Positions 2,166 through 5,465 of a DNA stretch of 5,920 nt are shown here, piece after piece. The position numbers and the translations under genes were made by a program. The notes beneath the pieces were generated by a model. That model was not told the origin of the DNA. It did no database searches and saw only the letters and a program-made list of their open reading frames with translations. The first letter of the stretch is position 1. Every line of letters begins with the position of its first letter. The DNA is from a virus. Taxonomy: Duplodnaviria > Heunggongvirae > Uroviricota > Caudoviricetes. Where the stretch lies: the IMG/VR virus record IMGVR_UViG_2690316285_000006, one strand, 5' to 3'.

Positions 2166-3673
2166 TGTTCTGGAATAAGAAAAATAAAAATTCAGAAACT
2201 AAACCCAAGAAGATTAAACAGGAACGTTCCTTAAAACAAAGTACCTTAAAACGAGATCTACAGGCAGTACGCAACACATCAGTAATGAACTTCGGATTCA
2301 ATTCAAACTCAGGCAGCAATATCAACTTCCTTCTGATGAAAGCACTACCTACCTTCAGGGCTTTCTCACGTGATGCAGTACTTAAGAATCCTATTGGTCG
2401 TAAGTACATGAACCTATCGGTAGATGGCGTTGTAGGCTCTGATGGCCTGTACGTTAAACCTTCAGTAGAGATTGACGGTACTGAAGAAGAAATCAACGGA
2501 ATCAATCTAACCTTGGAAAAGCTCTTTGACCGTTGGGCATATGATGCTGATCGTTTTAGTGTTGATGGCTCATTAAGTTTTGACCTGTTTCAGCAGAACG
2601 CAGAGAAGGTAAGGGTCCAGGATGGTGAATGCTTTATTCGTATACACAATATTAATAATACCATCAAGTTAGAAATTCTCGATACGGTTCGTTTGCTTCA
2701 GTTAAATAATCAACGTTTGAGTAATGGTAATTATATTAGTAATGGTATTGAATTTGATAAATGGCATAAGCCAGTTAATTACTATTTCTGTAAATTCGAT
2801 CCTGTTACCTATACTTATATCACTGGCGATTATGAAGTAATTCCCGCTGCGGAAATCTGTCACTACTTTATTGCTGATCAACAAGGCCAGGAACGCGGAT
2901 TGCCGGACATGGTTGCAACTTCCAAATTAATGGAAGATCTCAAGAACTTCACTGAGGCTGCGTTAACTGCGAAACGTGTATCTGCATCGTCAATGGCTTT
3001 TATTACCAATAATAACGACACTACCAGTACTGATCTGTTAGGGGCTGATGAACGAGAAGAAGTTACACCAGTATATACAGAGTATTTTGAAGCTGGCTTT
3101 ATTGGTGAGTTAGCCGAAGGGCAGGATATTAAAACTGTTACACCTACTAATGGTGTTGATGGGATTGATCAATTTACCAATGAATTGATGAATCAGATCT
3201 CGATGGGTCTGAACATAACAAAGCAAGCCTTATTATCTGATACATCCAATGCTTCATTTAGTGCAAGCCGACTTACTGAGAAATTACAACAAACTACATT
3301 CCGTACCCGTACTAATGTACTAATCAGTAAAGTACTTAAACCAATTTATATCGCCTGGTTAAAGAACGAAATGCTAAATAACAATAAGTTAAATCTAAGT
3401 TTCTCGAGCTTTGATGATCTTATTTGTGCTCGGTATATTTCTCAAAAGCCAATTAGTTTAGATCCTGTAAAGGATATACAGGCTGAACTACTCCAGTTAG
3501 AAGCAGGTATTAAATCTAAAACACAGGTTATTGCTGAGTTAGGCGGTGATCCAGTGAAGGTATTAGCAGAGGTACAGGCAGAAAAGGATAAAGAAAATAA
3601 AAACAAGGAAGTAATCCAGGATGGAAATGAAAAACCAGAAGAGGGAACTAACGAAACCCCTACAGGCGATTAA
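2165..3673 (+). CDS. Portal protein
   Basis: 502 aa ORF immediately after the terminase and gpW-like genes and before the prohead protease; size and position are typical for a portal. Motif [15 protein letters not shown] resembles a conserved portal segment as I recall it. Acidic, Lys/Glu-rich C-terminal tail. Start ATG overlaps the upstream stop. Confidence 0.8.
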
Positions 3674-5465
3674 TACAGAATCGCGTACCATCGAAGTAGC
3701 GTTTTGTTCAGAAACCCCTGTAGAACGTGAAATCAACGGTCAAATCTATAACGAAATTCTTCTATGTGGTTCCAGTAACGCAGACCTAACCCGCCTTAAT
3801 AACAATGGGGCAGTACTCTTTAACCATAACCGTGATGATCTTATTGGTGCTGTAGTTGATGCACGAGTGGATGCTGATCGCGTTGGTAGAGCTACATTAC
3901 GAATTAGCAGTACCGCCAACGATGAATGGGAAATGATTCAGGAAGGCGTACTAACCCATATTAGCATTGGCTATAACATTAATGATTATCAAATTGATGG
4001 TAATAATATCTATGTTACCAACTACGAAATTTATGAAATCTCATTAGTAACAGTACCTGCCGATCCTACCGTTGGGGTAGGTCGTTCAATGGACTCACAA
4101 CTTGCATTGAAATCACTAAATAAAGAAGGTGAAACAATTCAAGAGGGTCAAATGGATATGGATAATCCAGAAAACGAAAAGGAATCAATTGTTGATAGTA
4201 CTGAAGAAGTAAATGAAACAATTGAAGAGGCATTAGTAGAGCCATCGGTCGAATATGCAGAAGAAATCAAACAAGAATTAAGTGATGAAGAACTTTTAGA
4301 AATTATCTCTACTCGACCTGATTTGCTCAATAAAGTACATGGTGAAGAACCAGAAAGTATAAATAGTACAGAAGATACTGAACGTGTTCGTGAATTAGAA
4401 GCACTCGGTAAAGTACTTAATATTGATGTATCTGAAGCAATTGAAACAGGAATTTCAATTTCAGATTTCAAACGTCAATTGAATGACATTAAACAAAATC
4501 CTCTTCATGATAAGGAAATCAAAGAAATGGATAATAAAAATCTATTAAAAGATATGGTACGTGCCATTAAAACTGGCGATAAATCTGCTCTTGAAGCATA
4601 TGAACGTGGTATTAATGGTTTTGTACGTGCGGCTGTACCAAGTACTAATACTACTACCGCTGCTGGCGTTGTAGCTGATGACCTACAAGATCAATACATT
4701 CCAGAACTACTAAAAATTTCTGCACTTGGTGAACTAAACACCACTGTTTATTCTGGCCTTGCAGGTCGCGGTACTCTAAGTATTCCAAAAGCGGCTGGTG
4801 TATCTCCGGTATTTAAATTCTATGGTGAAGCAGAAGCACAGGATGATTCTATTGCAAGCTTTACTAAAGTAACCCTAAGCCCTAAAGCTTTTGGTGGTGC
4901 TATTCCACTATCCAAACAAGCAATTCTAACGGCTCCAAATATTGAATCATTTGTACAAAGTGAACTACTACGGTATGCCGCTCAGGGTCTTGAGCAAAAT
5001 GTAATGGATAAAGTAGTTGCCGCTGCTCCGGTGTTCAATGTTGAAACTGCTGGTTCTATTACTCTTGAAGATGTTCAGGGTGCAGTAGCGAAGCTGGCAC
5101 AGGCTAACGTTGATATGCGTGGCGTTAAAGCTGTTATGAACGCTAAAACCCTAAGTACCCTACGTCAGATTGCAGTACTTGATAACACTGCTGCTAAAGC
5201 AATGGTTGAAGGTTATCGCAGTACTGAAATGTGGCTTGCTGATGAAGTACGTGTAGTGATTTCTGAATTCGTAGCAGATGGTACTATTCTAATGGGCGAT
5301 TTCTCCAATGTAATTCTCGCTAATTGGGAAGGGCAGGAAGTAGATTATGACGATACATCCTATCGTTCAAGTAACACTATCGTATATCGCGTATGGGATT
5401 ACTCAGATATCGCACTTGCACACTCTGAAGCTTTCGTAAATATCGTTATTGGTAAAGCAGAATAA
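3621..5465 (+). CDS. Prohead protease (HK97/S78-type) - scaffold-like acidic segment - major capsid protein (HK97 fold), in one ORF
   Basis: Protease hallmarks in the N-terminal ~177 aa: LFNHN (His codon 3825-3827), THISIGY (Ser codon 3963-3965), [11 protein letters not shown] (nt 4035-4067). Residues ~178-330 are highly acidic with helical character ([35 protein letters not shown]), like a scaffold or delta domain. The C-terminal ~285 aa (from ~nt 4608) has major-capsid-like segments ([17 protein letters not shown] ... [18 protein letters not shown]). No stop codon between the domains. The start could be ATG 3621 or ATG 3627 (AGGA at 3618-3621, 5-nt spacer); it overlaps the portal 3' end. 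Confidence 0.8.
4141..4154 (+). promoter_or_regulatory. Possible internal ribosome-binding site plus in-frame ATG (AAGAGGG then ATG 4152-4154) at the protease/scaffold domain boundary
   Basis: Sequence AAGAGGGtcaaATGgatATG read directly; ATG 4152 is in frame with the 3621 ORF (Met178). Function is inferred. Confidence 0.35.

Follow-up and report, generated by a model that had tools for sequence, protein, structure and literature searches.

A protease, scaffold-like and major capsid protein fusion gene of a lambda-like prophage, with candidate nested translation starts

In phage HK97 the major capsid protein (MCP) carries the scaffold function as an N-terminal fusion, and this part is removed by a protease; protease and MCP (gp4 and gp5) are encoded by two genes, and the protease is targeted non-covalently. 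Nested protease/scaffold genes are an established principle as well: in phage λ (C/Nu3), the herpesvirus HSV-1 (UL26/UL26.5) and HFTV1 (gp17/gp17.5), an internal in-frame start located past the protease yields an abundant protease-less assembly protein, the capsid protein being encoded by a separate gene. Fusions that include the capsid protein itself have also been described. The classical ClpP-type example is the "tripartite capsid gene" of Salmonella phage Gifsy-2, reportedly described by Effantin and colleagues in Virology in 2010, where a protease, a central scaffold-like domain and an MCP likewise follow each other in a lambda-like head module. The same layout, in the same kind of head module, is found in the ~700-aa ClpP-MCP fusions present in 34% of the Siphoviridae prophages of Paracoccus (PMC6536676), and protease-MCP fusions were also described for actinophages. 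Here we analyzed a stretch of 5,920 nucleotides from a Caudoviricetes virus (IMG/VR record IMGVR_UViG_2690316285_000006), hereafter called the window, in which a single open reading frame (ORF) runs through a protease, a scaffold-like segment and a capsid domain. This fusion layout is real, already known and widespread; what is new here is comparative evidence for translation starts nested within the fusion gene.

Residues are numbered from Met1, the ATG at position 3621, and all nucleotide positions refer to the whole window. Very probably, this one frame encodes an S78 protease, a scaffold/delta-like segment and an HK97-fold MCP, and the protease trims the capsid protein. The preliminary description of the locus had proposed that the three regions share one frame of 614 codons with no intervening stop, as the ORF listing bears out. 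It had also cited an NHN histidine, an HISIG serine and a third motif as protease signatures. In a BLASTP alignment with HK97 gp4, LFNH69 pairs with FFNH65, THIS115IGY with GMS114VGF and the third motif with EISVCTFPANE, and His69 (codon 3825-3827), Ser115 (codon 3963-3965) and Glu139 are invariant among 55 homologs, so that the motifs are genuine. His65 and Ser114 are reported to be the catalytic residues of gp4 (Duda et al. 2013; MEROPS). The window protease is of the S78 type, with His69 and Ser115 as its putative catalytic pair and a predicted proteolytic activity. Using profile searches, Pfam Peptidase_S78 (PF04586) was matched over residues 61-153 with 38.8 bits (cutoff 21) and NCBIfam TIGR01543 over residues 43-153 with 47.2 bits, short of the 59 bits that its equivalog cutoff demands, while no ClpP or S49 match was obtained in the Pfam and NCBIfam searches of the protein. 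The window protease thus differs from the ClpP-like (S14) proteases of Gifsy-2 and Paracoccus; the capsid domain of the Paracoccus fusions is moreover Mu gpT-like.

The capsid domain was recognized by Pfam Phage_capsid (PF05065; residues 350-608, 64.9 bits, cutoff 24.2) and by NCBIfam TIGR01554 (residues 266-608, 76.5 bits, cutoff 27.5), which places a protease and a capsid domain in the same polypeptide, as had been proposed. An AlphaFold2 model of the fusion, built with 55 homologs as input, reached a mean pLDDT of 67.6 and consists of three folded modules separated by low-confidence linkers. Residues ~16-150 form a confident beta-rich domain (pLDDT 80-89) and residues 358-614 a confident alpha/beta domain, the capsid domain having pLDDT values of 75-91. 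With Foldseek, the best match of the capsid domain was the capsid chain of roseophage vB_DshS-R4C (8gta_A, E 1.4e-16, TM-target 0.71), which phmmer also matched, and HK97 gp5 was detected in several maturation states (2ft1 and 1ohg, E ~4e-13; 2ft1_G, TM-target 0.69). When the full-length model was submitted, capsid matches occupied all the listed ranks, and no match of the protease domain, for which a fold like that of herpesvirus assemblin would be expected, could be read. An hhalign comparison of the family with HK97 gp5 gave a partial, moderate match (probability 55%), the fold search being the better test here. The window protein thus has the protease family, the catalytic His/Ser and the capsid fold of HK97 gp4 and gp5, with the protease fused upstream of the MCP. 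A shell-forming role was shown only for the R4C homolog (PMC10276861), by analogy with which the window protein would form the capsid.

The R4C capsid chain also bears on maturation. It comprises 268 residues, corresponding to residues 362-629 of a 629-aa precursor, and begins with GGVLVAQDY, a position that aligns with about residue 347 of the window protein. In the TIGR01554 register, the equivalent of the HK97 Lys103|Ser104 cleavage site falls at window residue ~326-345. Because of this register and of the first residue of the R4C chain, we predict that about 325-347 N-terminal residues are removed to give a mature MCP of 28.7-29.8 kDa. The predicted cleavage zone, residues ~326-348, contains a conserved V-R-A motif followed by TNTTTAAG. 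The earlier claim that proteolysis would be needed to release a mature capsid protein is thereby supported, with ~340 residues to be removed judging from the R4C chain. The R4C structure paper (PMC10276861) is silent on a protease or on processing, and so is a marine phage proteomics paper.

Between protease and capsid domains, the preliminary description had seen an acidic helical scaffold-like region. The two adjectives apply to different parts: residues 156-221 are acidic (30% D+E, pI 4.05), and the predicted helices are confined to residues 222-325, the acidic part itself being predicted as disordered (pLDDT below 35 over residues 156-219). The helical module contains a strongly conserved block (residues 255-289) that recurs in R4C, VP882, phiHAP-1, Murka, ep3 and Mica, and it is covered by the family NF045541 and by the N-terminal part of TIGR01554. 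Beyond it, the model shows a disordered segment (290-307), a helix (307-325) and a third linker (326-357). Compared with the 103-aa delta domain of HK97, the corresponding region of the window protein is longer (~160 aa) and begins with the disordered acidic stretch.

The fusion had been presented as an occasional arrangement. This view has to be abandoned, given curated families (PHROG 617, phrog_4523, NF045541), published examples and thousands of database relatives. We collected 116 full-length homologs with both domains, at 43-100% identity and from independent assemblies; in IMG/VR, 499 loci encode relatives. An exhaustive search of 1.84 billion cluster representatives returned 2,283 matches at E<=1e-10, and among the best 150 representatives of 50%-identity clusters, ~130 are 575-690-aa proteins matched across both domains. 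The identical protein occurs in 149 blocks of the assembly collection, complete chromosomes among them. PHROG 617 ("major head protein") is matched end to end (residues 3-607 against 6-620 of 626, E 9.5e-84), and phrog_4523, named "major head and protease protein", also matches. The NCBIfam family NF045541 (scaf_prot_MCP2, "prohead protease/major capsid protein fusion protein") aligns with residues 17-289 only. The window protein is a relative and not a member of this family, because its score (126.2 bits) is far below the cutoff of 525 and only the N-terminal half is covered. BFVD contains more full-length structural analogues, labelled "Prohead protease" or "Major capsid protein". Annotation pipelines usually give the fusion one of these two labels, which hides two of its three functions, and predictors of capsid size that use MCP length are misled by 600-700-aa precursors.

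Isolated phages carry the same gene. Using tblastn, 29 phage records with a full-length homolog were found (coverage 95-99%), among them VP882, phiHAP-1, Xanthomonas FoX/Murka, coliphages ep3 and ECO1230-10, Burkholderia Mica, Synechococcus S-LBS1 and several roseophages. The 684-aa "major capsid protein and protease" of Murka/FoX (Foxunavirus) is 25.8% identical over 96% of the query and shares with the window protein a conserved ExxRxxEIxxLG...F block; Murka differs in being a myovirus, in its longer linker and in its weak Shine-Dalgarno sequence (SD) before the Met that follows the protease domain. The Murka paper (PMC10892653) describes this same family as protease, scaffold and HK97-fold MCP within one propeptide of 684 amino acids and does not discuss internal starts. 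The 629-aa product of gene 006 of R4C is a full-length homolog as well, encoded in the same order TerL-...-portal-fusion by a high-GC alphaproteobacterial phage. A type I CBASS paper was considered as a precedent and dropped, since it concerns a protease-scaffold fusion and not an MCP fusion. The closest homolog in an isolated phage is a 666-aa "hypothetical protein" of Escherichia phage DCP80 (PQ671644.1; our locus L017, record positions 810-12726), with 30.6% identity. This 141-kb record is classed as Straboviridae/Tevenvirinae, yet its left end shows a lambda-like TerL - small ORF - portal - fusion arrangement, and it may be chimeric or misclassified.

Two in-frame ATGs preceded by SD-like sequences, encoding Met178 and Met303, are candidate internal starts (Table 1). 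Translation from Met178 would give a scaffold-MCP product without protease of 437 aa (47.7 kDa), with the same architecture as HK97 gp5 (delta domain plus MCP); translation from Met303 would give an MCP of 312 aa (33.4 kDa) with an N-terminal extension of ~35-45 residues. A stand-alone 309-aa homolog (P0257) resembles the putative Met303 product in size and N-terminal offset. Both methionines fall in disordered stretches where the protein is least conserved, and at the protein level they are kept in 89% (Met178) and 100% (Met303) of the 116 homologs. SD strength was calculated against the anti-SD for the window together with eight genomic loci that are 44-82% identical. The values before both ATGs were -5.2 to -6.3 kcal/mol, equal to that of the annotated start, a correspondence holding for both sites, in 9/9 and 11/11 loci. 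In these nine sequences, an SD-like motif is found upstream of 7-11% of the codons, taken as a control, and is present in all nine for only 10 of 549 ungapped columns (1.8%). These columns form four clusters, of which two are at Met178 and Met303.

The ranking of columns was repeated on 42 homologs, dereplicated below 90% identity and 41-100% identical to the window protein, over 586 columns and with SD<=-5 kcal. The top SD columns were 303/304 (100%), 301 (95%) and 178/179 (90%), against a mean of 8.8%. An ATG is present in 38/42 homologs at the Met178 column and in 41/42 at the Met303 column. Only four columns have at least 70% ATG: the two located in folded domains (105 and 528) are preceded by an SD in 2% and 0% of the homologs, the two located in linkers in 90% and 100%. 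At the annotated start, the SD is kept in 57% of the dereplicated homologs, below both internal ATGs. The annotated start is a TTG in about a quarter of these homologs, and ATG 3627 is a second possible start, called as such in many homologs.

The codons used at the two sites were then compared with the amino acids they encode. The AAGGA before Met303 is spelled by AAG of Lys298 and GAA of Glu299 (Asp/Glu299 across homologs). AAG is used at Lys298 in 40/40 homologs, compared with 24% of all Lys codons, and 11/11 genomic loci agree. Before Met178 the amino acids vary (EG, KD, KE, ER, EE, ED), but a purine core with GG, 4-8 nt upstream of the ATG, is retained in every case by means of rare GAG/AAG/AGG codons. 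Around both sites the mRNA is no more strongly structured than around the annotated start; once corrected for GC, only Met178 is still unusual (top 6.5%). Two more conserved SD-like motifs, at ~3640-3660 and ~5320-5345 (residues 11-13 and 573-575), are followed by no start codon. Most simply, conserved amino acids (K-R-E-L and W-E/G-G codons) create them as a side effect, and they were used as internal negative controls.

An SD and an in-frame ATG just past the protease also recur in phages merely 23-30% identical: R4C (Met189, -9.5 kcal/mol), VP882 (Met185, -7.1), DCP80 (Met180, -6.2), ep3 (Met216, -6.0), phiHAP-1 (Met152, -5.9) and Mica (Met221, -4.6). R4C has no clear Met303-type site. The first internal start thus appears to be shared by enterobacterial prophages with phages as distant as those of Vibrio, Halomonas and Burkholderia and roseophage. 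Consistently, in 110 diverse representatives Met is enriched 2.5-3x at +10..30 residues past the PADxxxGxGR motif (4.2% and 3.0%, versus 1.3-1.7% in flanking bins), and 93/110 have a Met in the post-protease linker, versus 68 expected. The residue after this Met is usually E, S, T, D or P, and Glu/Lys-rich sequence precedes it. We also considered a T4-like "IxE" cleavage motif before Met178 and dropped it for lack of conservation. A conserved candidate ribosome-binding site with an in-frame start codon downstream of the protease, as in λ C/Nu3, is found in the window gene. The difference from λ, HSV-1 and HFTV1 is that the nested products would all end in the MCP and that two internal starts may exist. 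In the searchable literature, a limited set, no mention of starts nested within a protease-MCP fusion was found.

We propose that at least one of the internal starts is probably used; for the use of both, the chances look about even. Neither more nor less than an even chance is given to the complete three-level nested gene, in which starts at Met1, Met178 and Met303 would produce protease-scaffold-MCP, scaffold-MCP and MCP, respectively. The 67-kDa Met1 product would be a covalent part of a minority of the capsid subunits and would carry the protease into the procapsid, the tethered enzyme being delivered without a separate targeting signal. The 48-kDa Met178 product would be the main assembly-competent subunit, HK97 gp5-like in its architecture, and the 33-kDa Met303 product would lower the amount of scaffold relative to capsid. 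The subunits would co-assemble on the portal with their N-terminal parts inward. Inside the procapsid the protease would then become active, digesting itself, the linkers and the scaffold module and cutting the capsid domain free within residues ~326-348. All species would thus be trimmed to ~29 kDa, and the mature MCP would expand upon DNA packaging. The stoichiometry of protease, scaffold and capsid would be set by relative initiation rates, with few proteases, more scaffold and most capsid.

If true, the nested starts explain how fusion genes avoid one packed protease per capsid subunit, since the protease would be attached to only a fraction of them. The expression logic of λ C/Nu3 and UL26/UL26.5 would then extend to the capsid protein, as a further shared trait of the HK97 lineage, and the gene would be a compact, self-processing single-gene capsid cassette, possibly useful for engineered nanocompartments. 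If verified, they would amount to a variation, of modest interest, on an expression strategy already known. The self-contained polyprotein put forward in the preliminary description stands as far as the one-frame fusion is concerned; a single product is probably an incomplete account of it, the SD motifs of the two internal ATGs being the most conserved of the gene.

Several observations weigh against nested translation or the proposed maturation. About 10% of the close homologs and ~15% of the diverse representatives have no Met at the first site, nor does one occur within 60 residues in a subgroup whose linkers are very acidic. Outside the enterobacterial clade, a clear Met303 site is seen only in DCP80, and base composition (low GC) accounts for the weak mRNA structure there. 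The evidence for the candidate starts comes from sequence conservation, and Glu/Lys-rich linkers by themselves raise the chance of purine-rich SD-like strings. This last concern is addressed because other linker columns stay below comparable SD values. The R4C deposit may hold the modelled residues only, which makes residue 362 an upper bound for the mature N-terminus. Finally, the window belongs to a prophage damaged by insertion sequences (IS), and productive expression of the gene may be lacking in this host.

Read most simply, the ORF would give a polyprotein only, in which every subunit is the 67-kDa Met1 chain, all 415 copies carry their own protease into the procapsid and remove it autoproteolytically, and the internal SD-ATG pairs are relics of ancestral separate genes or serve another purpose such as ribosome pausing between domains. 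The literature describes the Murka homolog in this way, as a single propeptide (PMC10892653), a Met past the protease domain is missing from some members of the family, and ~16 MDa of internal protein could still fit a T=7 procapsid, as estimated from general capsid dimensions. However, relics should have decayed at 41-50% protein identity, whereas the Met303 SD is kept in 100% of the sequences through a rare synonymous codon (AAG in 40/40 versus 24%) and the Met178 SD is kept though the amino acids change. Pausing needs no ATG 4-10 nt downstream, yet one is present in 90-98% of the sequences, and the Met178-type site recurs across phyla of hosts. We therefore regard the polyprotein-only reading as unlikely. 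Even more improbable, to the point of being negligible, is that a missed stop or frameshift artificially joined separate protease, scaffold and capsid genes: nothing speaks for it except the prior of a textbook layout with three separate genes, and the same uninterrupted frame recurs in independent assemblies by the hundred, from genomes, metagenomes and isolated phages (the 116 homologs, 499 IMG/VR loci and ~130 of the best 150 representatives given above). A sequencing or assembly error, which the preliminary description had wished to see excluded, is thus ruled out by the family-wide conservation of the fusion.

It is also very improbable that the fusion is a degenerate gene, peculiar to a cryptic prophage in decay and riddled with IS, and that it serves no working virus. 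The IS2 end at 5889-5920 in the next head-tail gene and the IS2 splitting TerL in the chromosome HE616528.1 would fit such a gene. Against it, full-length homologs are the sole capsid gene of the plaque-forming phages R4C, VP882, phiHAP-1, Murka/FoX, ep3 and Mica, the R4C product builds a capsid of solved structure, and the window ORF has no internal stops and intact catalytic residues. At the family level a decay product is ruled out, isolated phages carrying the same gene. Overall, the fusion gene together with the proposed assembly and nested starts is the explanation that we favour with good confidence. The features of the locus are listed in Table 1.

Table 1. Features of the fusion gene and of the neighbouring genes in the window
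Feature	Position	Strand	Remarks
Terminase large subunit (TerL), lambda gpA type	1..1623	+	Reading frame continues beyond the window's 5' end
176-aa ORF	1635..2165	+	C-terminal half matches head-tail joining family phrog_5774
Lambda-family portal protein	2165..3673	+	Profile matches
Shine-Dalgarno sequence AAGGAAG	3605..3611	+	9-10 nt upstream of annotated ATG 3621
Protease-scaffold-MCP fusion ORF	3621..5465	+	ATG start, 614 codons including stop, uninterrupted (ORF listing)
S78 (HK97 gp4-type) prohead serine protease domain	3621..4085	+	Residues 1-155; profiles, alignment and model
Acidic, poorly conserved linker, predicted disordered	4086..4283	+	Residues 156-221
Candidate start 1	4143..4154	+	GAGGG (4143-4147), 4 nt, ATG 4152-4154 (Met178)
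Conserved helical module, presumed scaffold / delta-domain-like part	4284..4490	+	Residues 222-290
Second linker	4491..4625	+	Residues 291-335, one short helix (307-325)
Candidate start 2	4512..4529	+	AAGGA (4512-4516), 10 nt, ATG 4527-4529 (Met303)
HK97-fold major capsid protein domain	4626..5462	+	Residues ~336-614; predicted mature mass 28.7-29.8 kDa
Head-tail attachment / head-closure-like protein	5479..5802	+	107 aa

The gene order is TerL - 176-aa ORF - portal - fusion - 107-aa head-tail attachment-like ORF, and the 3' end of the portal gene overlaps the start of the fusion ORF by 53 nt (3621-3673). ORF and profile searches between the portal gene and the 107-aa ORF revealed no separate protease, scaffold or decoration gene. 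Besides the fusion, the head module thus has no gene for a protease, scaffold or capsid protein, and it continues with small head-tail genes. The 176-aa ORF showed no BLASTP similarity to the R4C adaptor, though the two have the same gene position. Within a lambda-like siphovirus prophage of Escherichia/Shigella, the fusion ORF is the gene for head assembly. The identical protein is encoded in the complete chromosome HE616528.1, which we take to be that of Shigella sonnei 53G; tail genes follow the fusion there, and the prophage is therefore of siphovirus type. A partial, 100%-identical copy (P0015) carries the annotation Shigella sonnei.

An IS2 terminus makes up the window's last 32 nt (5889-5920, TGGATTTGCCCCTATATTTCCAGACATCTGTT) and is inserted in a 130-aa head-tail gene starting at 5804. 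In HE616528.1 a different IS2 copy splits TerL (positions 5170-6500 of locus L011), whereas the window TerL is intact at that site. IS2 being placed differently in the two copies, the prophage has been eroded by IS2 differently among strains.

A sigma-70 promoter scan found 7 matches for 7.3 expected, which is the chance level and gives no support for an internal promoter. On the minus strand, a 107-aa antisense ORF (4148-4471) lies opposite the acidic linker and most likely just follows from the GAA-rich composition of the sense strand. The GenBank record of VP882 annotates comparable spurious antisense ORFs as genes; these small ORFs are the extra features of that record, which we had considered as possible annotations of nested genes and which proved not to be. 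Finally, an inverted repeat with a 17-bp stem (ACGGGAAGTACTTTTAC...GTAGAAGTACTTCCCGT) was matched by the terminator scan at 5548-5588, inside the coding ORF of the 107-aa head-tail protein.

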